The notes below the pieces were generated by a model, which saw only the letters and a program-made list of their open reading frames with translations, had not been told where the DNA came from and made no database searches. Source: a virus. From it: 40,540 nucleotides of DNA. Positions 6,422 through 38,629 of this stretch are shown here, in pieces; position 1 is the first letter of the stretch, and every line of letters starts with the position of its first letter. The stretch lies in the IMG/VR virus record IMGVR_UViG_3300029770_000021; one strand, given 5' to 3'. The position numbers and the translations under genes were made by a program.

Positions 6422-6744
6422 TGGATGCTGTGGAGTTTTTGGAACAACTGAAAAAACGCAGTAAAAGCAACCCGGATTATTACGGTGAAGAACTTAATAT
6501 TGCACATATTGAACCTATATCACTCGTTAGTCAAGTCGAACAGTGGGCCGCAGAGCACCCCGTCAAAACCAGGCAGAGCGTGTTTTTGGAGATGTTTCCC
6601 AATGCACCAATATTTCCAGATACCGGGATCGTCAAAATGTCTCCTTGCGAAGTGGATGCAGTATTGCGTGGAAATTGCCCCGGCGTGGGATGTTGCCTGG
6701 AGTGCCGGAAGAAATTCTGGCTTACGGAGGTGGAGGACGCATGA
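6418..6744 (+). CDS. Hypothetical protein (Cys-rich C-terminus)
   Basis: 108 aa with TRQSVFLEMFPNAP...CPGVGCCLECRKKFW. Coupled at both ends. Confidence 0.65.
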   Translation: MMDAVEFLEQLKKRSKSNPDYYGEELNIAHIEPISLVSQVEQWAAEHPVKTRQSVFLEMFPNAPIFPDTGIVKMSPCEVDAVLRGNCPGVGCCLECRKKFWLTEVEDA

Positions 6745-8039
6745 AAGCGTTGATCGGCGGAAGCCCCTGCACACGTTGGAGCATCGCACAGACGAAGAAC
6801 CGGGAGACCGAGGCCAGCGGTATCGGCTGGGAGATATTTCTAAATTACCGCATCGCACGGGATAAGTACCAGCCGGACTATTTTTTGTATGAAAACAACA
6901 AGTCCATGTCGCCCGCTATCCGGGCGCAGATCACGGCGGAGTTAGGCGTGGAGCCTGTCCTGATTAACAGCGCCCTGGTGAGCGCACAAAACCGTCAGCG
7001 CCTTTACTGGGTTGGCAAGCGTGAGCCGGACGGCACATACAGTCAGGTGGCAGTGGAGCAGCCGGAGGACAGGGGTATTTTGCTGCGGGATATTCTGGAG
7101 ACTTCGACCAGCAAAAAAGGATATGCACTGGACCCAACGCACGCAGAAGTCCTGAATATGAATCCAAGCGGGCACGGAATGAATGGTGCAGTTATCCACT
7201 GTGATGGAAAGAGCCGAACACTCACGACGAACAAGGGAGAGGGTCCAAAAATCATAACCCCTATCCGCATTGGGACCATCGAGAATGACGCGAAGAACCC
7301 GGACCATGACAGCCAGCAATACCGTGTTTACAGCCCGGATGGCAAAAGTGTGACCCTCTGCGGTAACGGCGGTGGCGTGGGTGCAAAAACTGGGCTTTAT
7401 GCCGTGCCGGTGCCGGTAAATGAAACCGCCGAGGGGAAAGCCCAATGTCTACGCGCTACCTACTACAAAGACGGGATCCGCAATCTGGTGGGGAATGCCG
7501 TGGACCGGAAAACGTGCGTGGCGATGCCTGTCGGGATGGCAGCGGGGCCGAAAAGCATACTTGTAGTTACGGCTGCGGGAAAGTCGGTGCCTGTTTACGA
7601 GGTTAGAAATGGGAAAATCGCCATCAAGGGCGAGGAGTACCCCATCAAACTGGCCGACGGCTTTTACATTATTCGCAAGTTGACCGTGACGGAATGTAAA
7701 CGCCTCCAGACCGTGCCGGAGGAGTATGTTTTCCCGGTGAGCGACACTCAGGCATACAAAATGCTGGGCAACGGCTGGACGGTGGACGTGATCGTCCATA
7801 TCATGAGCCACTTTGAAGGGCTGACGGCGGAGCCGGTGGAAGTGCTGTCGATGTATGACGGCATGAGCTGCGGTCATATCGCACTGGACAAGCTGGGCGC
7901 GGAGATCTCCGCCTACTATGCAACCGAGATCGACAAGTACGCCATCCAAACCACACAGCACAATTACCCGGACACTGTACAACTGGGCGACGCGTTTCAG
8001 GTGCGGGACGATGATTGGAGATTGGGGGAGGAACTATGA
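6741..8039 (+). CDS. DNA (cytosine-5) methyltransferase with circularly permuted motif order (IV-X, then I-III)
   Basis: SD GGAGGTGGAGGA. In order: MKALIGGSPC (IV), LYENN (VI), QNRQRLYW (VIII), QQYRVYSPDGKSVTLCGNGGG (target recognition domain, TRD), RKLTVTECKRLQTVP (IX), GNGWTVDVIVHI (X), then VEVLSMYDGMSCG (I), YATEIDKYA (II), QLGDAF (III), stop. Confidence 0.85.
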   Translation: MKALIGGSPCTRWSIAQTKNRETEASGIGWEIFLNYRIARDKYQPDYFLYENNKSMSPAIRAQITAELGVEPVLINSALVSAQNRQRLYWVGKREPDGTYSQVAVEQPEDRGILLRDILETSTSKKGYALDPTHAEVLNMNPSGHGMNGAVIHCDGKSRTLTTNKGEGPKIITPIRIGTIENDAKNPDHDSQQYRVYSPDGKSVTLCGNGGGVGAKTGLYAVPVPVNETAEGKAQCLRATYYKDGIRNLVGNAVDRKTCVAMPVGMAAGPKSILVVTAAGKSVPVYEVRNGKIAIKGEEYPIKLADGFYIIRKLTVTECKRLQTVPEEYVFPVSDTQAYKMLGNGWTVDVIVHIMSHFEGLTAEPVEVLSMYDGMSCGHIALDKLGAEISAYYATEIDKYAIQTTQHNYPDTVQLGDAFQVRDDDWRLGEEL

Positions 8040-11759: not shown

Positions 11760-12060
11760 GATTTACGGTTGCAGCGATGACCTTGTGGAAATTTACGGTA
11801 GCGTTTACAAAGAAGACGAAATCGGCTGTTTTGACCATGATGTTCGTATCCGTTTTTTTGATGGGACGATTATCCGTATTGGCTATCCCAAAAAGGACTT
11901 AGGCGTTTGGTGGATTGAGGTTGAAAAACAAGGGACAGCAAAACAGGCGTTGACATTATGTGATAACGAAGATGACGATATTTATAGTGACATCTTCGAA
12001 ATTGACGCGGAGATTAAAAGCCATTCTGTGATTAAGCAGAAATATCCGGACAGACCATGA
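11752..12060 (+). CDS. Hypothetical protein between terS and terL
   Basis: MIKIYGCSDDLVEIYG...DGTIIRIGY...VWWIEV. Coupled at both ends. Confidence 0.6.
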   Translation: MIKIYGCSDDLVEIYGSVYKEDEIGCFDHDVRIRFFDGTIIRIGYPKKDLGVWWIEVEKQGTAKQALTLCDNEDDDIYSDIFEIDAEIKSHSVIKQKYPDRP

Positions 12061-13337
12061 TTAGCCACAAGCAGAAAAAAATCCTCGCATTTCCATACAG
12101 CCGCTATGATGCCTTGATATGTGACGGTGCCGTGCGTTCCGGCAAGACCTCTATCATGATGTGGGCGTTTGTCCGCTGGGCAATGGAGAATTTCAGCGGT
12201 CAGCGCTTCGGCGTGTGTGGTCGCACGGTGGATAGTTGCACCAAGAACATCATTGTGCCGTTCACGGCAATGAGCCTTGCCAAAGAGCGTTATATCATTC
12301 GCTGGCGGCGCGGTGACAAGGTTATGGAAGTGCGGCGCGGAGCCGTGACAAATTACTTTGAAGTGTTCGGCGGCAAGGACGAGGCGAGCTATACACTGAT
12401 CCAAGGCCGCACACTGGCGGGTGTGTTGCTGGACGAGGTGGTATTGATGCCACGCTCATTCGTGGAACAGGCGCTTGCACGTTGCTCCGTTGACGGCGCG
12501 CGGCTGTGGTTCTCTTGTAACCCCGGCAGCCCACACCACTGGTTCTATCAGGAGTGGATCAAGCGGAGCCGTGAGCGTAATGCACTGTATCTACACTTTG
12601 AAATGACGGACAACCCCGGCCTGAGCAAGCGCACCCTTGAACGGTACGAGAATATGTATGCCGGTATATTTTATGACCGGTATGTGCGCGGCCTGTGGGT
12701 AGCGGCAGAGGGCATCGTTTATAAGGACTTCGCCAACGATACAGAAAAGTATTTGATCGGAGACCCTTTGGAGTGGGCCAAGCAAAACGGCACCAGCTTC
12801 TCAATCATTTCAATTGGCGTTGACTTCGGTGGCACAAAATCTGCAACGAAATTTCAGGCCACCGGGATTACAAAAGATTTCCGGGTTGTGGCGTTGGAAG
12901 AAGAATACATCAAAAACGAAGAGATTGACCCGGATGCATTAAACCGGCGTTTTGCTACGTTCTGCCAGCTGATAACGTCAAAGTATGGTTACAGCCAGAC
13001 ACGAGCGGATAGCGCGGAAACGGTGCTTATACGAGGGTTAGATCACACGGCACAAAAACTCCGGCTGGGTACCCAAGTCAAGAACGCGCTGAAAATGCAA
13101 ATCACAGACAGAATTCGGCTGGTAGTGTTGCTGATGAAGCAGGGGCGGTTCAAAGTTTCCAGAAACTGCCCACATCTGATCGATGCACTGCAATCCGCTA
13201 TTTATGATCCTGATAAATTTGAGGACGAGCGCTTGGATGATGGCACGTCCGACATCGACAGCTTGGATGCCTTTGAGTACAGCATTGAGCCTTATTACAA
13301 AGACCTGGAACGTGCCGGTCACATGATGGGACGGTGA
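12057..13337 (+). CDS. terL: Terminase large subunit
   Basis: Walker A CDGAVRSGKTS, LLDEV (Walker B-like), 426 aa. PBSX/SPP1-type architecture by eye. Confidence 0.92.
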   Translation: MISHKQKKILAFPYSRYDALICDGAVRSGKTSIMMWAFVRWAMENFSGQRFGVCGRTVDSCTKNIIVPFTAMSLAKERYIIRWRRGDKVMEVRRGAVTNYFEVFGGKDEASYTLIQGRTLAGVLLDEVVLMPRSFVEQALARCSVDGARLWFSCNPGSPHHWFYQEWIKRSRERNALYLHFEMTDNPGLSKRTLERYENMYAGIFYDRYVRGLWVAAEGIVYKDFANDTEKYLIGDPLEWAKQNGTSFSIISIGVDFGGTKSATKFQATGITKDFRVVALEEEYIKNEEIDPDALNRRFATFCQLITSKYGYSQTRADSAETVLIRGLDHTAQKLRLGTQVKNALKMQITDRIRLVVLLMKQGRFKVSRNCPHLIDALQSAIYDPDKFEDERLDDGTSDIDSLDAFEYSIEPYYKDLERAGHMMGR

Positions 13338-13341
13338 AATA

Positions 13342-14745
13342 GTGAATATTCGCAGAGCATTAAAGGATCTTGGGTTTGACACGGTCGACAGCAAATTTTA
13401 CTCTCTGATCGACCTGTGGGACGCATGGTATAAGGGAAACGTTGAAGATTTCCACAGCTATACGGTGTGGAATGGCATTGAAGAGCTGGAGTGCCACCGT
13501 TATTCGGTTGGAATGGGAAAGAAAGTCTGCGAGGATTGGGCCAACCTCCTAATGAACGAGCGAGTCAACATCACGCTTGAAGGCAAACAGGAACAGGAAT
13601 TTATCGATACTGTTTTTGCCGATAACAATTGGGAGGTCAAGGCTAACGAATCGCAGGAGCGCAAAGCGGCAGTAGGAACCGTTGCGTATGTGCCGGTGAT
13701 GGAAGGCATGGGAATTAACCCAGATACAGCAGAAATTATTGATTCTGGCCGCATTCGCATCAACTACGTCAGCGCCGGGAACATCTACCCGCTGACGTGG
13801 GATAACGGTGTTATTCGCGAGTGCGCGTTCGCATCCACTCGGAAGGTCGATGACACAGAATATACTTACATCCAGGTGCACAGGCTGCGCAACGGCGAGT
13901 ATGACATTGAGAACCATCTGTATGATGCAGAGGAAATCCCGCTGGCCAGCGTGAAAGGGTTTGAGACAATTCCTCCGGTGGTTCATACCGGCAGCGACAA
14001 GCCACAGTTTGTGATCGACCGGCTGAACATTGCAAACTCTGACGAAAACAACCCGCTTGGCGTGGCTGTGTTTGCCCACGCCATCGACCAACTTAAGAGC
14101 GTTGACATTACCTATGATAGCTATGTGAACGAATTTGTGTTGGGCAAGAAGCGCATTGTGGTGCAGCCGGAGGCAACCAAAAGCATCGACGGTCGGCCAG
14201 TGTTTGATAAGCGTGAGACCGTTTATTATGTACTTCCGGAGGACAGAGGCGGCAACGGCAACATCTTACAGCAGGTCGATATGTCGCTGCGGACAGCGGA
14301 GTTTAACACCGGTATGCAAGATATGTTGAACATCCTGTCCAGCAAGTGCGGTTTCGGTGAGAACCATTACAAATTCAATCAGGGCAGCATCGCAACGGCC
14401 ACGCAGGTCATCAGCGAGAACAGCACCCTGTTCCGCACGATCAAAAAACATGAAATTGTGCTTGAACAGGCAATTACAGAGTTGTGCCGGAGCTTGCTCC
14501 GCATGGGGAATCGGTACATGGGCGCATCCCTCAATGAGGACGTCCAGATCTCCATTGACTTTGACGATTCCATCATTGAGGACAAGGGTCAGGACTTTAA
14601 CCGTGACGTGCAGCTTCTTAACGCTGGCATCATGAACGATTGGGAGTTCCGTATGCGCTGGATGAATGAGGACGAGGCGACCGCAAAGGCAGCGTTGCCA
14701 AAGGCACAGGACATGGTGACCGAGGAAGAAACGGAGGTAGAGTAA
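13342..14745 (+). CDS. Portal protein (SPP1 gp6-like)
   Basis: 467 aa, immediately after terL, with an acidic C-terminus. Size and position are typical. Confidence 0.85.
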   Translation: MNIRRALKDLGFDTVDSKFYSLIDLWDAWYKGNVEDFHSYTVWNGIEELECHRYSVGMGKKVCEDWANLLMNERVNITLEGKQEQEFIDTVFADNNWEVKANESQERKAAVGTVAYVPVMEGMGINPDTAEIIDSGRIRINYVSAGNIYPLTWDNGVIRECAFASTRKVDDTEYTYIQVHRLRNGEYDIENHLYDAEEIPLASVKGFETIPPVVHTGSDKPQFVIDRLNIANSDENNPLGVAVFAHAIDQLKSVDITYDSYVNEFVLGKKRIVVQPEATKSIDGRPVFDKRETVYYVLPEDRGGNGNILQQVDMSLRTAEFNTGMQDMLNILSSKCGFGENHYKFNQGSIATATQVISENSTLFRTIKKHEIVLEQAITELCRSLLRMGNRYMGASLNEDVQISIDFDDSIIEDKGQDFNRDVQLLNAGIMNDWEFRMRWMNEDEATAKAALPKAQDMVTEEETEVE

Positions 14746-15188
14746 TGGGCGGTAGAGGTGGAGCAGGTGGCGGCATTGGAAGTCGAAACGCATCTTCTCC
14801 CGATTACAAAAACTCATACAATATCGAAATGGAGAACGCCCGTAGCTTTGAAGCTGCGTTTGCTATTGAAAGCGGCGCGACCAAAGAGACAACCGGCTAT
14901 CAGATGTATGTCCACCAAGATGTTACCGGAAGAAGTCTGATTGCGGATACTCGCAAAGACATTGATGCACTAAAACGTGATTTGCGAGAGGCAAACCAAA
15001 TGGGAAAGTCTTACGGTATGTCTCAAGCGTCCATTGATGGCATGAAAGCCGCATTGCGCGAGAAAATTTCTTTGCAGGAACGGGCGGTTACTGCTATGGA
15101 GGGCGCAAGGTCTGAATACGAAAAGTACAAGCGGCAAGCGTCGGCAGGAAACGCCAAAGCAAAGCGACGCGGCGGACAATGGATGTAA
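14745..15188 (+). CDS. MGGRG-prefixed coiled-coil protein, unknown function
   Basis: MGGRGGAGGGIGS... The N-terminal motif is shared with 15204..15596. GGAGG lies 7 nt upstream. Confidence 0.7.
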   Translation: MGGRGGAGGGIGSRNASSPDYKNSYNIEMENARSFEAAFAIESGATKETTGYQMYVHQDVTGRSLIADTRKDIDALKRDLREANQMGKSYGMSQASIDGMKAALREKISLQERAVTAMEGARSEYEKYKRQASAGNAKAKRRGGQWM

Positions 15189-15203: not shown

Positions 15204-15596
15204 ATGGGTGGACGCGGCGCAAGCAGCGGCATGAGTGCAAAGGGCAAGCCTTACGGTAGCGAGTTCAAGACGATTATCAAAGAGAGTAATATCAAGTTTG
15301 TCAAGGCGGTTGACGGTGCGCAGAAAACGCCAATGGAGACAATGACAAGTGGTCGCGTGTATGTAACGCTCAACAAAAGCGACAACATCAAAGCAATTAC
15401 ATACTACGACACTAAGAACAAGCGCATAAAACAAATAGATCTTGACAGGCCGCATGATAAAGTTTCCCCGCATACCCACCACGGGTATATACACAATGAA
15501 AACGACGGTGCAAAGGGATACGCGAATCTAACGCCAACCGAAAAGAAAATGGTTGAGCGGGTCAAAAAAATATGGTACAATCGGCATAGCAAGTAG
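15204..15596 (+). CDS. MGGRG-prefixed His-rich protein, unknown function
   Basis: MGGRGASSGMSAKGKPYGSEF...SPHTHHGYIHNEND. GGGGAG lies 7 nt upstream. Confidence 0.7.
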   Translation: MGGRGASSGMSAKGKPYGSEFKTIIKESNIKFVKAVDGAQKTPMETMTSGRVYVTLNKSDNIKAITYYDTKNKRIKQIDLDRPHDKVSPHTHHGYIHNENDGAKGYANLTPTEKKMVERVKKIWYNRHSK

Positions 15597-15709
15597 TGGT
15601 GTAATGGCAGCACACTTTGTTTGAGGAAGTTCCGGTTTGATTCCGGGCGCTTGCTATGCCGTAAGGTACAGGAATGTATCTTGCGGCATTTTTGTTTGTT
15701 GGGGGCTGT

Positions 15710-16357
15710 ATGATTAACTTTGAAAATCTCGACAAGTTCACATTCCCCGGTGTTGGCAAGTACGATATTCCGCAGATCGAGCCGGTCAAGGCATATCCGC
15801 AGGGAGAATTTATCCCTGTAAATTACCATTACACGGCGAAAGAAACGAAAAGCAAAATCGTGCATTTCTTTGTGGACGATTATCAATTCATTCGATATTG
15901 GAATACGCCGGACAAATACATTCCGAAGCTGTCGCAGTTTGCGGCGGTGTGTGCGCCGGACTTCTCCACTTACACAGATATGCCGCTTTCAATGCAGATA
16001 TACAACCATTATCGCAAGCACTGGCTGGCTGCATATTGGCAGCTACACGGCATGACAGTATACCCCTCTATTTCTTGGAGCGACGAGGATAGTTACGATT
16101 GGTGCTTTGATGGTGAGCCTGTCGGCGGGATAGTTGCCGTTAGTTCGGTAGGCACACAGCAGAACAAGGAAAGCAAGCGTCTTTTTCTGCGCGGCTACGA
16201 GGAAATGATGAAGCGGCTATCGCCGGAATGGGTGATATTCTACGGCAGAGTGCCGGAAGAGTGCGACTGGAATGTTATTCGCGTGAAGCCGCACTATGAC
16301 GAGATCGTGAAGCGGAGGGTGCAAAATGAAATATCCGTTCACGCCGGAACTGCTTGA
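15710..16357 (+). CDS. DUF4417-like protein
   Basis: HFFVDDYQFIRYWNTPDKYIPKL...PDFSTYTDMPLSMQIYNHYRKHWLAAYWQLHGMTVYPSISW matches my recollection of DUF4417. Start ATG 15710 (MINFENL). Confidence 0.6.
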   Translation: MINFENLDKFTFPGVGKYDIPQIEPVKAYPQGEFIPVNYHYTAKETKSKIVHFFVDDYQFIRYWNTPDKYIPKLSQFAAVCAPDFSTYTDMPLSMQIYNHYRKHWLAAYWQLHGMTVYPSISWSDEDSYDWCFDGEPVGGIVAVSSVGTQQNKESKRLFLRGYEEMMKRLSPEWVIFYGRVPEECDWNVIRVKPHYDEIVKRRVQNEISVHAGTA

Positions 16358-18074
16358 CGCGCTCCCAGAAGAACTCGCCGAACTGTACCGTGCTCTTGAG
16401 GATACGTTACTCGACGAGATATGCAGCCGCTTGAAACTGGCAAATCAGTTTAACGAGGTCACAGTACAGGATATCCGGGCGCTGCGGTCCCACGGCATCG
16501 ACCTAAAGGAAATCAAGAAAGCAATCCGCGAGACTTCCGGCATCAGCAAAACGAAGTTGGACAAGCTGCTGGGCGATGTGGTCGCAAGGAACCAACAGTA
16601 TTACACCGACCTGATCGACCTTGCGCATATCACCCAACCTGAGACACTGGTTGACGCTGCGGAAGTGGCGGCAATCAGGACGCAGACACTTGATACATTC
16701 CACAATCTGACCGCATCCATGGGCTTCCTGGTGGACGCTGGGCGTACAATGCTACCACCTGCCAAAGCGTACCAATGGGCGCTTGACAGCGCAGCATTGC
16801 GGGTGCAAAGCGGTGCAATCAACTACAACCAGGCGATCAAAACGGCGGTGAAGGAGCTTGCGGACAGCGGTCTAAAAGTGGTTGACTACGAAAGTGGCCA
16901 TCGGGATCATGTTGATGTTGCCGTGAGAAGAGCTGTAATGACCGGCGTATCTCAAATCTGTGCTAAATACACGGAGCAATCCGCAGAGTATCTGAATACT
17001 CCATACTTTGAAGTATCGGCTCATATTGGCGCACGAGATAAGCCGGGACCGTCACCATGGTCATCACATAAGGATTGGCAGGGCCGTGTTTACAGCGTCC
17101 GCACCGGGGATATTTACCCGAACATCTATGACGTTTGCGGCCTGGGCGCTGTTGACGGCTTGGAAGGGGCCAACTGCCGCCACAGGCGGTTCCCGTGGGT
17201 TGAGGGCGTGTCCGAGCGCACTTACACGGATGAACAGCTGGAACACATCGATGACGGCCATGGATGCACGTTTGATGGCAAGGATTACACGGCATACGAG
17301 GCAACCCAGATGCAGCGCCGCATTGAGCGGACGGTTAGAAAGTTAAAGCGCGAAAAAGCCGCCTACAAGGCCGCAGGATTGCATGAAGATGAAACTGCGG
17401 TAAACATACGCCTCCGGCGGTTAAACGCTAAATACAAGGCGTTTAGCGCGGAAGCTGGCCTGCCGGAGCAACCGGAGCGGATGCGCATCTATAATGCTAC
17501 TCCCATTTCAAAAAGCATAAAAAGCACCGGTAATGGCAACAGCGTTTCCCCGGGAGATCCGGTTTTGGTTGGTACTGTTGATTTTTCTGATAAAACAGCA
17601 ACCATGAAAGTTTTGAGCGATGCTGAGAAAGAACTGGCTGATTTTGATTACGAAGTTAATTACTCGGTGACGAAAGATGGCAAAGTCTGGCGCGTCTCCG
17701 GGGAGGCAACAACGGTAGACTTGTCTGCTATACCGAGCACCCTAAATGGGTCATATTCGTATCACAATCACCCGCGTGAAAAAACGCATTACTCTTTTAG
17801 TGCAGAAGACGTTGCGTTCTTTATGGACAGTAAAGAAGAACTTTCCATTGCGTCTGATGACCGATTTATATACATTATGAGACGAACAGCCAAAACCGTT
17901 GAAAAGGCTCGCGATGTGGTGTACAATCGCTTTAAGGAACTGGAACGAACGGACGTATTTGAGATGATGTGGAAAGGGCAGATAAACCCGGACGTTGATA
18001 AGTACCACGAAGTAATGAAGATTTTAAGTAAAGAGCTGGAGGTTGACTATGTACGCAAAGAAAAAAATAAATGA
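16326..18074 (+). CDS. MuF/SPP1 gp7-family head morphogenesis protein with a C-terminal extension of about 195 aa (JAB/RadC-like HNHP...S..D motif)
   Basis: The MuF-like core includes GANCRHRRFPW and YEATQMQRRIERTVRKLKREK. The extension carries EVNYSV...SYSYHNHPREKTHYSFSAEDVAFF. Confidence 0.8.
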   Translation: MKYPFTPELLDALPEELAELYRALEDTLLDEICSRLKLANQFNEVTVQDIRALRSHGIDLKEIKKAIRETSGISKTKLDKLLGDVVARNQQYYTDLIDLAHITQPETLVDAAEVAAIRTQTLDTFHNLTASMGFLVDAGRTMLPPAKAYQWALDSAALRVQSGAINYNQAIKTAVKELADSGLKVVDYESGHRDHVDVAVRRAVMTGVSQICAKYTEQSAEYLNTPYFEVSAHIGARDKPGPSPWSSHKDWQGRVYSVRTGDIYPNIYDVCGLGAVDGLEGANCRHRRFPWVEGVSERTYTDEQLEHIDDGHGCTFDGKDYTAYEATQMQRRIERTVRKLKREKAAYKAAGLHEDETAVNIRLRRLNAKYKAFSAEAGLPEQPERMRIYNATPISKSIKSTGNGNSVSPGDPVLVGTVDFSDKTATMKVLSDAEKELADFDYEVNYSVTKDGKVWRVSGEATTVDLSAIPSTLNGSYSYHNHPREKTHYSFSAEDVAFFMDSKEELSIASDDRFIYIMRRTAKTVEKARDVVYNRFKELERTDVFEMMWKGQINPDVDKYHEVMKILSKELEVDYVRKEKNK

Positions 18075-18297
18075 AAACCATCCACTCTTTAATGAGTACA
18101 AGGCAAAATGCGACGCACTTTTTCATGAATGCTGGGCTAAAGTAGATGAAGAACGGGCAAAATACCCCGATTGGAAAGGACGAGACCACCCATCTGATTT
18201 GGCGGTATATGCACTTGAGAAAGAGTGCAACTCAAAGCTTAGAGACCTACAACGTGAATATGATTTCCTGTTTTCCGAGGTGACGGACAATGAATGA
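18049..18297 (+). CDS. Small protein downstream of MuF (candidate immunity or partner protein)
   Basis: GGAGG lies 7 nt before ATG 18049. 82 aa. Overlaps the MuF 3' end by 26 nt. Confidence 0.55.
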   Translation: MYAKKKINENHPLFNEYKAKCDALFHECWAKVDEERAKYPDWKGRDHPSDLAVYALEKECNSKLRDLQREYDFLFSEVTDNE

Positions 18298-18421
18298 TGA
18301 TATCATGCGCGCTGTGGAAGCTATTCTTAAACGTGGCAATGATGCGGAGATCCGGCGCAAGGGCGACGGGTACATCGTGTTAGAGGTCAAGAAAACAATC
18401 AAATATTCAACTCCCGCGTAA
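18290..18421 (+). CDS. Small hypothetical protein (43 aa)
   Basis: GAGGTGA lies 6 nt upstream. MNDDIMRAVEAILKRGNDAEIRRKGDGYIVLEVKKTIKYSTPA. Below the ORF-track cutoff. Confidence 0.5.
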   Translation: MNDDIMRAVEAILKRGNDAEIRRKGDGYIVLEVKKTIKYSTPA

Positions 18422-18443
18422 TTGGGCGCGGGAAAGGGCAATA

Positions 18444-18488
18444 GGAGCCAACTGCTGAGGAATTCTCGGTGGTTGGCTCTTTTGTTTT
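18444..18488 (+). terminator. Rho-independent terminator (a second weaker hairpin lies at 18493-18518)
   Basis: GGAGCCAAC...GTTGGCTCT stem followed by TTTTGTTTT. Confidence 0.7.
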
Positions 18489-18570
18489 AAGTAAAACCCG
18501 CAGAGAACAGCGGTTTTTATAAAAACTATCGTCCGCGAAGAAACGCGGCCAAAGAAAGGGAGATAGTGTC

Positions 18571-19164
18571 ATGGCACTTACACGCAAACTTTTGAAGGGT
18601 ATGGGTCTCACCGACGAACAGGTGGATACCATCATCGAAGCGCATACCGACACCGTGGACGGCTTGAAGGCTGACGTCAGCAAGTACAAGGCGGACGCGG
18701 AGAAGCTGCCCGGAATCCAGAAGCAGTTGGATGACCTCAAGGCAGCAGGCGACGGCGGCTATAAGGAAAAGTACGAGAAGGAACATTCGGATTTTGAAGC
18801 TTATAAGTCCGGCATCACAGAAAAAGAAAGCAAAGCGGCAAAAGAAAAGGCCGTCCGTGCTTACTTTGAAAGCAAAAACATCACCGGCGCAAATCTCGAC
18901 CTTGCGATGCGCGGCTGCGGCGAGGAAATGGCCGCATTGGAGCTGGACGGCGAGAAGATCAAGGACACCAAAAGCCTTGACGCTCTCGTAGACGGCACCT
19001 ATAAGAGCCTTGTTTCTAAGCCTGCTGTCCGGCTGGACATGGGCGCACGGCTCAACGAGGGCGGAAAGCCTATGACCAAGGACGAGATTATGCAAATCAC
19101 CGACAGAACTGAGCGGCGCGCTGCAATCGCCGCAAATATGGATTTGTTTAGAAAGGAAGAATAA
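18571..19164 (+). CDS. Scaffolding protein
   Basis: 197 aa, helical and charged. LTDEQVDTIIEAHTDTVDGLKADVSKYKADAEKL. Directly upstream of the capsid gene. Confidence 0.85.
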   Translation: MALTRKLLKGMGLTDEQVDTIIEAHTDTVDGLKADVSKYKADAEKLPGIQKQLDDLKAAGDGGYKEKYEKEHSDFEAYKSGITEKESKAAKEKAVRAYFESKNITGANLDLAMRGCGEEMAALELDGEKIKDTKSLDALVDGTYKSLVSKPAVRLDMGARLNEGGKPMTKDEIMQITDRTERRAAIAANMDLFRKEE

Positions 19165-19166
19165 AA

Positions 19167-20039
19167 ATGGCTGTTGATCCTAAGCTGATTAAGAAGGAAG
19201 ATCTCGCCCGTGTTCGTGAAATCGAATTTACCGAGATGTTCGGCTATTCCATCAAGAAGCTGATGGAGGCTCTGGGCGTTACTCGTAAGATCGCCAAGCA
19301 GGCCGGTACTGTGCTCAAGAGCTACAAGGCTACCGGCACTTTGGAAGACGGCGCTGTGGCTGAGGGCGAGACCATCCCCCTGAGCAAGTACAAGACCGAG
19401 GCTGTGAACTACAAGGAGATCACCTTGAAGAAGTGGCGCAAGGCCACCTCTGCCGAAGCAATCACCGATCGCGGCTACGATCAGGCGGTTGAAATGACCA
19501 CCGATGAAATGCTAAAGGATGTGCAGAAGGGCATCCGCAAGGACTTCTTCGACTTCCTCGCAACCGGTACGGGTACGGCCAGCGGTGCGACCTTCCAAGC
19601 GACCTTGGCTCAGGCATGGGGCCAGCTGCAGGTGCTGTTCGAGGATGACGAAATCGGCGCAGTGTATTTCATGAACCCGCTGGACGTTGCGGACTATCTC
19701 GCAACTGCCAACATCACCCTGCAGACCGCTTTCGGCATGACCTATGTTGAGAACTTCCTCGGTCTGGGCACTGTAATCTTGAACTCCAGCGTCCCCAAGG
19801 GCAAGATTTACGCCACTGCCAAGGACAACATCGTCCTGTACTACATCCCTGTGAACGGCGCTGATCTGGGCGAGGTGTTCAACTTCACCACCGACGCCAC
19901 CGGTTATATCGGCATCCACGAGGAACCCGATTACACCAACATGACCGCATCCGATACCGTTATCAACGGCATGGTGCTGTTCGCCGAGCGCATTGATGGC
20001 GTGGTTGTCGGCACCATCACTCCGGCAGTGGGGGGCTAA
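19167..20039 (+). CDS. Major capsid protein
   Basis: 290 aa after the scaffold gene, with composition typical of an HK97-fold Gram-positive siphovirus MCP. Ends AVGG-stop within a G6 run. Confidence 0.88.
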   Translation: MAVDPKLIKKEDLARVREIEFTEMFGYSIKKLMEALGVTRKIAKQAGTVLKSYKATGTLEDGAVAEGETIPLSKYKTEAVNYKEITLKKWRKATSAEAITDRGYDQAVEMTTDEMLKDVQKGIRKDFFDFLATGTGTASGATFQATLAQAWGQLQVLFEDDEIGAVYFMNPLDVADYLATANITLQTAFGMTYVENFLGLGTVILNSSVPKGKIYATAKDNIVLYYIPVNGADLGEVFNFTTDATGYIGIHEEPDYTNMTASDTVINGMVLFAERIDGVVVGTITPAVGG

Positions 20040-36688: not shown

Positions 36689-38029
36689 CTAACTTGGCGT
36701 TACAAAAAACGCACCGTCATTGTCTGCGTCGATGCGCTGGATTGTGCGTACCCAAAATTCCTTTTTTGCCTGCCGGTCTAAATCAGGATATTCCTTCAAT
36801 TCCCGCCGTAATGTTTCAAGGTCAAATTCTTTTATAGGCTCCGGGTTTATTGTCGCGAGTTGCTGTTTTAATTCCGTATAGTCTTTTTTGTATTCTTCGA
36901 TTTCAATCAAATCCGACAGATACAGGTCTTTCAGTTTTTGCATTTTCCGCTTGATTTGCTCCGCCGTTTTGGGCGGCTTTTTTTCTGCGGTTTTTGATTT
37001 GGAGTAATACTTTTTTGCGATCCCCTCAAATTCTCTCAGAAGGTAATCCTCAAGCACATCTTCTCGGATTCTGAGGATGTGCGGGCAGTCGGCTGGGTCA
37101 AGTGTGTGCGTTCTGCATCGGTAGTACTTGTACACCTGCTTTACAGTCTCCGGCTGCATATTTCTACCGCACTCCCGGCAACGGAGAATTCCGGTAAACA
37201 AATATATTCGATCCGCACTGGCGTTCCGCTGGCTTCGCCGTTCCAAGATTTTCCCAGCAAGGTCGAAAGTTTCTCGATCGACAAGCGCGGGCAATGCGTT
37301 TTCCACGCCGAACGCCTCACCTAAGTACAGGCGGCTTCTCAACGCATCCTTGTATTTGTTGTACGAGCGTTTGATCCCCCACTCCGTTGCCATATACCGC
37401 CTTAGCGCAAGGATGCTTTGCAGCCGTATAAAGGCTGGGAACATATCTCGCGCCGCATCTGCGGTTTTTTCATCAATGTCGTAGCGCCGGTTCTTCACGC
37501 AGATTCCGATAGGAGTTTTCCCGTTGGTGGGCTGGCCCTTTGCCCTCTTGCCCTCGTTGATGGCCTTAATGCGCTCCGATGTGCGGTCAGCTTCGTCCTG
37601 CGCTACCGACAACATAATATTGACCTTCAATCGCCCTGATGCAGTCCGCGTTTCGTAGTCCTCTCTAATGGCCTGCCAATCCACATGATTTTTGTCGAGA
37701 ACCTCTTGCACGGCGTAGTACCCCGCCACATTCCGAAACCACCTATCCAGCTTGACAAAAAGGATGGTGTCGATTTTCCCGGCGCGGCAATCATCAAGCA
37801 GGCGCATCAAGGCCGGACGCTTTTTATACGGCTTTCTGGCGCTGATTCCGGCGTCCTCGTAAATACCCACCACCTCCATGCCGTGTGCGGCGGCATATGC
37901 AATCAGGGCATCACGCTGGTCTGCCAGGGACAGGCCGTGCTTCGCCTGTTCTTCGGTCGATACCCTGATGTACAGTGCTACACGGATGCGTAGATTATTT
38001 GGTAGAGTGACCACTATTTTTTGGCACAT
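36689..38029 (-). CDS. Large serine recombinase (integrase)
   Basis: ALYIRVSTEEQAKHGLSLADQ (catalytic Ser region), a recombinase domain, and the zinc ribbon LRCRECGRNM...YYRCRTH. GGAGGGG lies 6 nt before ATG 38029. Confidence 0.92.
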   Translation of the reverse strand: MCQKIVVTLPNNLRIRVALYIRVSTEEQAKHGLSLADQRDALIAYAAAHGMEVVGIYEDAGISARKPYKKRPALMRLLDDCRAGKIDTILFVKLDRWFRNVAGYYAVQEVLDKNHVDWQAIREDYETRTASGRLKVNIMLSVAQDEADRTSERIKAINEGKRAKGQPTNGKTPIGICVKNRRYDIDEKTADAARDMFPAFIRLQSILALRRYMATEWGIKRSYNKYKDALRSRLYLGEAFGVENALPALVDRETFDLAGKILERRSQRNASADRIYLFTGILRCRECGRNMQPETVKQVYKYYRCRTHTLDPADCPHILRIREDVLEDYLLREFEGIAKKYYSKSKTAEKKPPKTAEQIKRKMQKLKDLYLSDLIEIEEYKKDYTELKQQLATINPEPIKEFDLETLRRELKEYPDLDRQAKKEFWVRTIQRIDADNDGAFFVTPS

Positions 38030-38030
38030 G

Positions 38031-38465
38031 TTATCCCCTCCAAAATCCATAGTTGGCACAATGGATGTCAACCCAAACGCACCAGGCAAAAAGCCCGATG
38101 ATCAATAGTGACAAACCGAGTATGATCCACCTGTATAGCTTCACGGAGTGCCAAAGATTGCACAGTTCTGTGTCCATCAGGCCGATGGTCTGCCGTTTGT
38201 TCTCAAGGCGGTGTTCTAGTCCGTCCTTTTCCGCTTGCAACGTTTCCTCACTGGCCGTCAGATGATCTCCGATGCCGTAAAATGCATCCAGCGACACGCC
38301 AAGGACGGCGCATATTGGCCCAACCGTGGAGATATAGGGGGCCTTGGAAGCATGGGTAAAGAAATTGTTGACGGTAGACGGCGGAATCCCCGATGCTTCA
38401 GCTATGTCCTGAATGGTCATACCCAAAGCGTTACGTTTCGCCTTACAAACTTCCTGAATTGTCAT
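38031..38465 (-). CDS. Membrane-anchored XRE-family HTH regulator
   Basis: AAGGAGG SD. MTIQEVCKAKRNALGMTIQDIAEASGIPPSTVNNFF is the HTH, followed by a coiled coil and a C-terminal TM helix (WIILGLSLLIIGLFAWCVWV). Its stop lies 1 nt from the int ATG. Confidence 0.8.
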   Translation of the reverse strand: MTIQEVCKAKRNALGMTIQDIAEASGIPPSTVNNFFTHASKAPYISTVGPICAVLGVSLDAFYGIGDHLTASEETLQAEKDGLEHRLENKRQTIGLMDTELCNLWHSVKLYRWIILGLSLLIIGLFAWCVWVDIHCANYGFWRG

Positions 38466-38629
38466 AAAAAGTGCCTCCTTACCCCCAAAATCAAAATATG
38501 GGTAAAGGCGGCACAAACTTTTAAACGGCTGAAAATGCCAAAAACCAAGCTTTGGGACTTGCCCACCCAACCCTGTTTTTGCTACGCTTTGATTACGGCA
38601 AGCCGACACCCCCAAAGGCTTGCCTTCCG

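Follow-up and report, generated by a model that had tools for sequence, protein, structure and literature searches.

Phages of the human gut encode MuF toxins in abundance, and the muf gene usually lies just downstream of the portal gene. In the literature on these proteins, the toxin domains are hypothesised to be delivered along with the DNA, and two MuF toxins, Apk2 and Bxa, offer the precedent of small immunity open reading frames (ORFs) adjacent to the toxin gene (PMC11699363). According to the main text of Jamet et al. 2017 (PMC5576092), gp7 of SPP1 is associated with the portal, the Pfam family PF06152 is named MuF2 and placed in the MuF superfamily, 75% of MuF toxin domains are shared with other polymorphic toxin families, and about a third of the MuF C-terminal extensions in the gut gene catalogue of these authors have no known domain. 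Here, we deal with a MuF extension in IMG/VR virus record IMGVR_UViG_3300029770_000021, a stretch of 40,540 nucleotides (the window) that represents the ~40-kb genome of a temperate siphophage. Its ORF 16326-18074, on the plus strand, encodes a MuF2 head protein of 582 amino acids (aa) with an extra C-terminal domain of 198 aa, and it is followed by two small ORFs, called orfA and orfB below. The explanation that we favour, with confidence that is fair rather than high, is that positions 17493-18288 are one allele of a MuF polymorphic toxin/immunity cassette with a JAB-like cargo, carried by a temperate siphophage that infects gut Clostridia (hosts of the Oscillospiraceae type). The toxin domain and its partner family appear to be new, being absent from the libraries and papers searched, while the architecture, a MuF polymorphic toxin with an immunity gene, is of an already known kind.

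A replaceable cassette behind a MuF2 core

The match of the 582-aa protein to Phage_min_cap2 (PF06152) spans residues 6-373 with an E value of 6e-84, and the MuF2-type core as a whole (residues 1-389; 16326..17492, plus strand), which is also assigned to phrog_581, minor head protein, is taken as a carrier module of the capsid interior. A preliminary description, made from the letters alone, had let this core end near ...EQPERMRI and an extra domain of about 195 aa follow it. The string 'EQPE|RMRI' is indeed placed at residues 381-388, and the last 198 aa (window 17478-18071), which read ...YEVNYSVTKDGKVWRVSGEATTVDLSAIPSTLNGSYSYHNHPREKTHYSFSAED... by translation, include the expected EVNYSV...GSYSYHNHPREKTHYSFSAED. 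The broader picture drawn there, of a MuF head protein with an added enzyme-like C-terminal domain in the effector-plus-immunity layout of a temperate phage, is supported.

What is exchanged at this locus can be read from sister phages, which were found via the neighbouring gene p130 and whose MuF2 cores are 66-97% identical to that of the window. If the DNA is compared by blastn with one of them (L081), identity is 94% up to 17492, absent over 17493-18288, and resumes at 18289. From these breakpoints it follows that the exchange unit is exactly the C-terminal domain plus orfA (replaceable cassette, 17493..18288, plus strand), and that orfB belongs to the backbone. What do the other sisters carry at the same position? 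Some of them have a MuF2 protein of about 390 aa without any C-terminal domain, directly followed by an orfB-like ORF in most cases. Others have a 203-aa extension bearing CdiA_C (PF18451, E 2e-18) and then a YjcQ-family ORF, or a 159-163-aa extension bearing Ntox50 (PF15542, E 3e-18) and then a 68-aa ORF, the latter observed in L099 and L100 as L096 stops at the locus edge, or an unassigned 192-aa domain and then a 99-aa ORF (L081; L098 stops at the locus edge). Each domain-bearing sister allele that could be checked has its own small downstream ORF. Different domains on near-identical MuF cores are the defining behaviour of a polymorphic toxin locus. For reference, MuF2 genes of sister alleles with CdiA_C, Ntox50 or the 192-aa domain lie at L086:4124-5905, L096:4658-6310, L099:4200-5843 and L081:4123-5853.

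The partner inside the cassette is orfA (18049..18297, plus strand, 82 aa), a putative immunity or inhibitor protein. It starts with ATG, overlaps the stop of the MuF gene by 26 nt, and has GGAGG at 18038-18042, 6 nt upstream of its ATG. By BLAST and then by hidden Markov model (HMM) search, an orfA homologue was found to start at the stop codon of the domain ORF, or to overlap it, in all 70 loci with a complete domain (53 from IMG/VR and 17 from genomes), and these include loci in which the domain is 31-45% identical and the MuF and portal proteins belong to other families. In a reverse look-up, two of three orfA homologues stand behind a MuF-domain gene, and the third is an orphan copy that follows the last ~20 codons of a domain. 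The gene is called on 349 public contigs. Mean pairwise identity is 0.28 for orfA, compared with 0.44 for the catalytic part of the domain and 0.38 for its C-terminal part; orfA thus evolves faster than the domain, and its divergence correlates with that of the C-terminal helical part (Spearman 0.68; partial r 0.53) but not with that of the catalytic part (partial r 0.08). This helical subdomain, at domain residues about 141-198 (17898..18071, plus strand), is swapped together with orfA and may be the surface by which the partner is recognised.

Not only whole cassettes are moved. In L060, L069 and L076, a second module lies after the resident pair and consists of a 40-60-residue fragment of the C-terminal domain and a second orfA. 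The orphan fragments begin at HMM positions 123-145, and the two modules of L060 have 40 nt at the 3′ end of orfA that are nearly identical. An orphan remnant at L080:2870-3198 retains only the last ~20 codons of the domain and an orfA homologue. The orphan orfA of L080 adjoins a gene for a choline-binding/transglutaminase wall protein of >1000 aa, outside any visible head module. In L075:3984-6834, the MuF gene is interrupted: an 86-aa ORF and a Bro-N/ANT gene separate an N-terminal part of 262 aa from a part of 277 aa that bears the domain.

The protein encoded by orfA is modelled by AlphaFold2 (AF2) as a helical hairpin with short terminal strands at a predicted local distance difference test score (pLDDT) of 82. 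It has no informative relatives, and a Foldseek search of the model against the PDB returned generic helical hairpins only. Three identities were considered and rejected. A J-domain was suggested by weak DnaJ matches (Pfam E 0.01 in 2 of 25 members; PDB 1bqz, E 0.25), which lie around '...KYPDW.G.D...'; this similarity is treated as chance because the conserved His-Pro-Asp of the orfA family is at the N-terminus, not in the inter-helix loop. A Cys/His zinc-binding protein was dismissed as the Cys residues are not conserved, and a ubiquitin-like substrate of a JAB enzyme as the protein is helical and has no Gly-Gly end.

The second small ORF, orfB (18290..18421, plus strand, 43 aa), overlaps the stop of orfA and gives a weak match to phrog_29211. 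It is found directly 3′ of short MuF genes without a C-terminal domain (L085, L097) and also after other alleles (L081). It is a conserved gene of the backbone, located between the MuF and scaffold genes and outside the cassette, and since it also stands beside MuF genes that lack the domain, it was rejected as a second immunity gene. The preliminary description had taken both small coupled ORFs as immunity-like; this holds for ORF 18049-18297, which is linked to the domain, and has to be given up for ORF 18290-18421.

Probable affinity of the C-terminal domain with JAB proteins

The folded part of the extension, at protein residues about 412-582 (17559..18074 including the stop codon, plus strand), is modelled with a pLDDT of 89 and a predicted template modelling score of 0.86. 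Neither single-sequence nor profile searches gave a match for the domain in Pfam, PHROGs, NCBIfam or PDB chains. A word-indexed search yielded 25 relatives, carried on PF04233 (MuF1) or PF06152 (MuF2), and an HMM scan of 1.84 billion representatives yielded 642 proteins at E<=1e-3, of which 321 at E<=1e-10. As these are representatives of clusters at 50% identity, the family comprises at least 642 such clusters. In nearly all of the HMM matches the domain is located at the C-terminus of a protein of 450-650 aa. Among the carriers, Pfam scans identify MuF1 and MuF2, a portal to which the domain is fused directly (PF06381), a portal joined to MuF, and a portal fragment joined to NUDIX; two of the ten carrier proteins scanned have no Pfam match in their N-terminal part. 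Every carrier that can be identified from its sequence is a capsid-interior protein. The Gly-rich GGRG junction was considered as a general linker for MuF cargo and rejected, because only 4 of ~170 family proteins have it.

The arrangement E...HxH...S..D, with a spacer two residues longer than in JAMM/RadC proteins, had been pointed out in the preliminary description and is confirmed. The motif is H480-x-H482-x9-S492-x2-D495, whereas the canonical JAMM motif is HxHx7Sx2D. It is contained in HNHPREKTHYSFSAED (17763..17810, plus strand), and H480, H482, S492 and D495 are predicted as metal and transition-state residues. An upstream Glu, whose conservation had been proposed as a check, is E443 (17652..17654, plus strand), which lies 37 residues before H480, where a beta-strand begins; it is aligned with the Glu of RadC by hhalign and is predicted to be the catalytic Glu of a JAB enzyme. 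In an alignment of 25 sequences that reaches 23% identity, the invariant positions are E59, G68, H96, N97, H98, S108, D111, D127, Y132, Y191 and R193, in a domain numbering to which 384 is added to obtain the position in the full protein. E443, HNH, S and D are all among them, and invariance down to such low identity argues against chance as the origin of this motif.

Beyond the motif, several signals of different kinds point to the JAB superfamily. The order of elements in the AF2 model is b-a-b(E)-b-b-b(HNH)-a(S..D)-b-b-a-a-b, and the placement of each motif residue agrees with what we take to be the arrangement in MPN/JAMM structures. In individual scans of the 25 members, Prok-JAB is the sole Pfam family matched by more than one of them (2 of 25, E 0.03; best E 0.029). 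When the family was compared by hhalign with a 120-sequence alignment of RadC (YicR family), the probability was 58%, and it was 53% with a 104-sequence profile of the family. This match, in which the Glu and HNHP are in register, extends over 63 columns with a P value of 1e-4, and its probability is moderate; a control with reversed RadC gave 6%. A standalone protein of 181 aa in sister phages (L011:2293-2838) seems to form a bridge, since it matches the family profile with an hhalign probability of 86% and carries a near-canonical HNHPEGVLPVPSLKD (HNHP...PSxxD), whose Ser and Asp align with S108 and D111. The spacer between HxH and Ser is x8 in this protein and x9 in the domain, and its only Pfam match is RadC, at a non-significant E of 0.06. 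Standalone JAB-like proteins of 181-182 aa with an MGGRGG leader are also present in L012, L018, L020, L089, L092, L096 and L097, and absent from the window.

Comparison with virus structures gives a further signal. In a Foldseek search against BFVD, the matches that follow the MuF homologues, at E 1e-2 to 1e-6, are iridovirus proteins (3R of frog virus 3 and 229L of invertebrate iridescent virus 3), F317L of African swine fever virus, algal-virus and mimivirus-like proteins, and p25 of Xanthomonas phage Xop411; weaker ones are labelled deubiquitination hydrolase (E 1.6e-3), RadC, metalloprotease and MPN. Versions of Tox-JAB-2 (DUF4329) are reported from iridoviruses, mimiviruses, algal viruses and Xanthomonas OP1-like phages in the main text of Zhang et al. 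(PMC3482391). We infer that the large-DNA-virus matches are the proteins meant by these authors, and Xop411 p25 has a sub-threshold match to DUF4329 (E 8e-5).

The domain is nevertheless outside the RadC and DUF4329 families as Pfam defines them on sequence. Neither the window protein nor any of the 25 members matches RadC (PF04002) at E<=10, and the same proteins give no match to DUF4329 (PF14220) and have HNH, not H[ST]H. The likeness to Xop411 p25 and to the large-DNA-virus proteins is one of fold only. From all this, we are rather confident that the domain has the fold of the JAB superfamily, and it is probably, though not conclusively, a divergent and previously undescribed JAB/RadC-like member of the deaminase-fold superfamily. 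A JAB cargo had been called unusual for MuF, which is a fair remark: none is found in the main text of PMC3482391 or PMC5576092, the supplementary domain tables aside, and MuF is not among the carriers listed for the Tox-JAB entries in the main text of the former. Our literature search returned neither a phage JAB anti-defence protein nor a MuF-JAB fusion.

Proposed cargo and antidote, and competing explanations

How might such a cassette work? The MuF2 core, which is SPP1 gp7-like and so would be portal-associated, is expected to put the fused domain inside the capsid, and by analogy with what is established for MuF/gp7 proteins the domain would enter the next host cell with the DNA. The cargo is likely a Zn-dependent hydrolase that acts through E443, H480, H482, S492 and D495, and its substrate could be protein or nucleic acid. 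In the producing cell, the translationally coupled orfA would serve as the cognate inhibitor (immunity protein) that silences the enzyme, probably by binding to the C-terminal helical subdomain, and it may protect lysogens. Recombination would then swap either the whole cassette, or only the C-terminal tip with orfA, so as to leave orphan modules and to diversify specificity, as in contact-dependent inhibition (CDI) and Rhs systems. As the partner is obligate and co-varying, and as known toxin domains are found at the same position in sister phages, a toxin with its antidote fits better than a harmless anti-defence enzyme.

Several results weigh against this explanation. With regard to the fold, Foldseek against the PDB gave no significant JAB/MPN match, the best hits (E 0.34) being scattered kinases and regulators and a possible MPN-subunit chain of the proteasome reaching only E 1.3 with a template modelling score of 0.27; no Pfam JAB model is matched at threshold, the hhalign probabilities against RadC are only moderate, and the helix that precedes the HxH strand in RadC is absent from the model. 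The JAMM/RadC resemblance announced in the preliminary description thus stands as several independent weak signals, with membership in the fold unproven. With regard to the toxin, no LXG, Rhs or CdiA carrier is found among the best 150 matches, while typical polymorphic toxin domains are shared; sharing with other toxin families is typical of MuF toxins, not obligatory, and is not seen for this domain. With regard to the antidote, co-variation of orfA with the C-terminal part could stem from physical linkage alone, and orfA belongs to the late operon and lacks a promoter-like site that would serve it separately, so any protection of lysogens is conjectural.

Could the domain instead be an enzyme that serves the phage? 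It might be a RadC-like nucleic-acid-processing enzyme whose targets would be, for instance, the ends of DNA or nucleic acid of the host, at ejection or early in infection, with orfA as a co-factor or packaging chaperone and no toxin at all. The best profile match is RadC, HNHP is as in RadC, the stretch G....V.P..I is shared, and the Asp after the next strand may, in our own reading, parallel the 'LDH' of RadC. In addition, the RadC and Tox-JAB clades are predicted nucleases in the sections of PMC3482391 and PMC5512222 that treat them, and the portal association of SPP1 gp7 (PMC5576092, main text) would place the enzyme suitably. However, RadC itself has no established biochemical function, the short MuF of many close relatives makes the domain dispensable, and the orphan partner modules and the swaps with toxin alleles indicate diversification driven by conflict, not housekeeping. 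We regard a service enzyme of this kind as unlikely.

Ubiquitin-like (Ubl) conjugation offers another target. To our knowledge, all JAB enzymes that have been biochemically characterised are Ubl/ubiquitin C-terminal peptidases. A JAB isopeptidase delivered by the virion, an idea of the preliminary description, could remove ubiquitin-like modifications made by host defence systems (Bil, or Cap2 of type II CBASS, the cyclic-oligonucleotide-based antiphage signalling system) at the start of infection, with orfA as a chaperone or regulator. The complete E/HxH/S/D set is invariant, entry alongside the DNA would go well with anti-defence at an early stage, and the weak Prok-JAB matches in Pfam and the BFVD match labelled 'deubiquitination hydrolase' (E 1.6e-3) are in its favour. 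So is a Tad2-like gene (PF11195, Thoeris anti-defence) that lies directly 3′ of the orfA homologue in L077 (L077:3265-3558), from which it follows that the gap between MuF and scaffold can hold anti-defence genes. On the other hand, judged by profile and fold, its closest relatives are RadC-like and Tox-JAB-2-like, and Zhang et al. (PMC3482391) and Iyer et al. have argued that these clades lack the groove for the ubiquitin tail and might have nucleic acids as substrates. Moreover, a deconjugase that does no harm could do without an obligate, co-varying and cassette-linked partner, CdiA_C and Ntox50, which occupy this place in sister phages, are bona fide toxins, and no Ubl, E1 or E2 genes adjoin the locus. 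Such a role for the domain, for which none of our results speaks specifically, seems to us rather unlikely. A more elaborate form, in which the capsid-delivered isopeptidase erases Bil-like or type II CBASS-like conjugation before gene expression and orfA from a prophage neutralises incoming enzymes, is quite doubtful; if true, the orphan modules and the exchanged C-terminal tips would be traces of an arms race in which lysogens face superinfecting phages. A broader version would also make the M-G-G-R-G leader, which is described below, a second capsid-targeting route for polymorphic cargo, with the standalone JAB-like protein included.

Finally, that the domain does not have a JAB fold, and that E/HNH/S/D is a convergent or non-catalytic pattern in a novel fold of a structural head domain or some other toxin, would agree with the empty PDB search by Foldseek despite the many MPN/JAB structures there, with the lack of Pfam, PDB-sequence and NCBIfam matches and with the missing helix between hairpin and HxH strand, but is improbable in view of five independent weak signals that point to JAB and to no other fold, an order of secondary structure and a placement of every motif residue that agree with JAB, and a far weaker reversed-profile control.

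What is gained? A large, unannotated group of MuF extensions (at least 642 clusters at 50% identity) is now assigned as a probable JAB/RadC-like hydrolase with a dedicated partner. The roles of RadC-like and toxin-type JAB proteins have been unclear for decades, and a version that would be packaged in the virion, occupies a place taken in other phages by proven toxin families, and has a candidate natural inhibitor is a tractable route to the substrate. Exchange of partial cassettes suggests a way in which enzyme-inhibitor pairs can gain new specificities around an unchanged catalytic core. The family is ordinary in its architecture; it is useful because it is large, comes from the human gut and gives a handle on the function of RadC-like/toxin-type JAB proteins.

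Surrounding genes and likeness to known systems

The window encodes a large terminase (12057-13337) and an SPP1-type portal (13342-14745, plus strand; Pfam SPP1_portal, E 2e-18; phrog_533, E 2e-117) and, after the MuF gene and its small ORFs, scaffold (18571-19164) and major capsid protein (19167-20039). Three consecutive hairpins lie at 18412..18520 on the plus strand (18412-18433, 18443-18481 with a U tract, and 18491-18520), and the predicted RNA fold of this region has an energy of -57.9 kcal/mol (z -6.3). Tandem terminators had been announced after the small ORFs; the three hairpins are there, and one of them, the middle hairpin with its U tract, passes a terminator scan as a canonical intrinsic terminator. 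The phage is judged to be temperate because a serine recombinase (36689-38089, minus strand) and a helix-turn-helix repressor (38031-38615, minus strand) are encoded. Homologous loci of the family sit on contigs of bacterial genomes (genome bins of Oscillospiraceae and other Clostridia), and a member of the orfA cluster is on a contig of 415 kb. In the early region, a C-5 cytosine DNA methyltransferase (6543-8039; PF00145, E 4e-28) may be an anti-restriction function of the phage.

Whereas portal and MuF genes are adjacent in most relatives, three genes are inserted between them here. One is a DUF4417 gene (15674-16357, E 5e-58), which also matches the C-terminal part of phrog_940 'nuclease', is located in the variable region between portal and MuF, and overlaps the MuF start with its 3′ end by 32 nt. 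Apart from DUF4417, the variable genes in this region, one to four per phage, all start with M-G-G-R-G-[GAS], and the first of them overlaps the portal stop. Examples are 14745-15188 and 15204-15596 in the window, L011:1140-1679, L011:2293-2838, L088:2112, L088:4124, L098:3357 and others. In about 25 related phages, this leader precedes at least 11 unrelated protein bodies, among them the standalone JAB-like protein. As the Gly and Arg codons of the leader differ between cassettes, it appears to be the peptide itself that is conserved, and it may be a short leader for capsid targeting or processing of a second set of polymorphic cargo. The gene p130 (15204-15596) has a full-length match to phrog_9479 (E 2.5e-51) and a weak one to Ntox24 (E 0.019). 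Ntox24 is among the MuF-delivered toxins in the main text of Zhang et al. (PMC3482391), and p130 may encode another cargo toxin.

How, then, does the locus compare with systems already described? With the MuF polymorphic toxins (PMC5576092, main text; Apk2, Bxa and EFV, PMC11699363, in the parts that describe them) it shares an N-terminal MuF in the head module downstream of the portal, a variable C-terminal domain with a small cognate ORF behind it, a bearer that is a temperate phage and has gut Firmicutes as hosts, and sisters with the known toxin domains CdiA_C and Ntox50 at the same position. It differs in that this domain has no Pfam model and does not appear among the toxin domains named in the main text of PMC5576092 and PMC3482391, supplementary tables aside, and in that toxicity and immunity are predicted here from sequence. 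The partial exchange, in which the C-terminal tip and the partner move while the catalytic core is kept, is not mentioned in the consulted portions of the MuF-toxin papers (PMC5576092, PMC11699363).

With RadC-like JAB proteins (PF04002; YicR of Escherichia coli), the domain has in common HNHP, the Glu on an upstream strand, Ser..Asp at the start of a helix and G....V.P..I, and both are frequent on mobile elements. Unlike RadC, it has a spacer extended by two residues (HxH-x9-SxxD) and an additional C-terminal subdomain of two helices, and it lacks the helix in front of the HxH strand and any useful Pfam match. Tox-JAB-2/DUF4329 (PF14220) and Tox-JAB-1, as treated in the main text of PMC3482391, are likewise divergent JAB toxin modules with E, HxH, S and D and with a dedicated immunity protein, and the viral homologues listed there for Tox-JAB-2 are the same kinds of proteins as the BFVD matches of our domain model. 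However, there is no sequence match to DUF4329, and HNH stands here in the place of H[ST]H; their carriers in that text are type II, VI and VII secretion systems (T2SS, T6SS, T7SS) and Rhs proteins as opposed to MuF, and their immunity proteins, Imm-NTF2-2 and Imm65, are unrelated to the helical hairpin of orfA. The Prok-JAB deconjugases (PF14464; Cap3 of CBASS, Mec+/QbsD) have the same set of catalytic residues, and 2 of 25 members match Prok-JAB weakly, but here no Ubl, E1 or E2 gene is adjacent, and the gene linked to the domain encodes a helical protein that resembles an inhibitor. Lastly, the orphan C-terminal/immunity modules of CDI and Rhs systems differ from the present ones in that whole toxin domains are displaced there, while the fragments here are the last 40-60 residues, a non-catalytic subdomain. 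They are alike in having a displaced 3′ fragment with its own immunity-like gene downstream of the resident pair, as in L060, L069 and L076, and in having module ends that share near-identical sequence.

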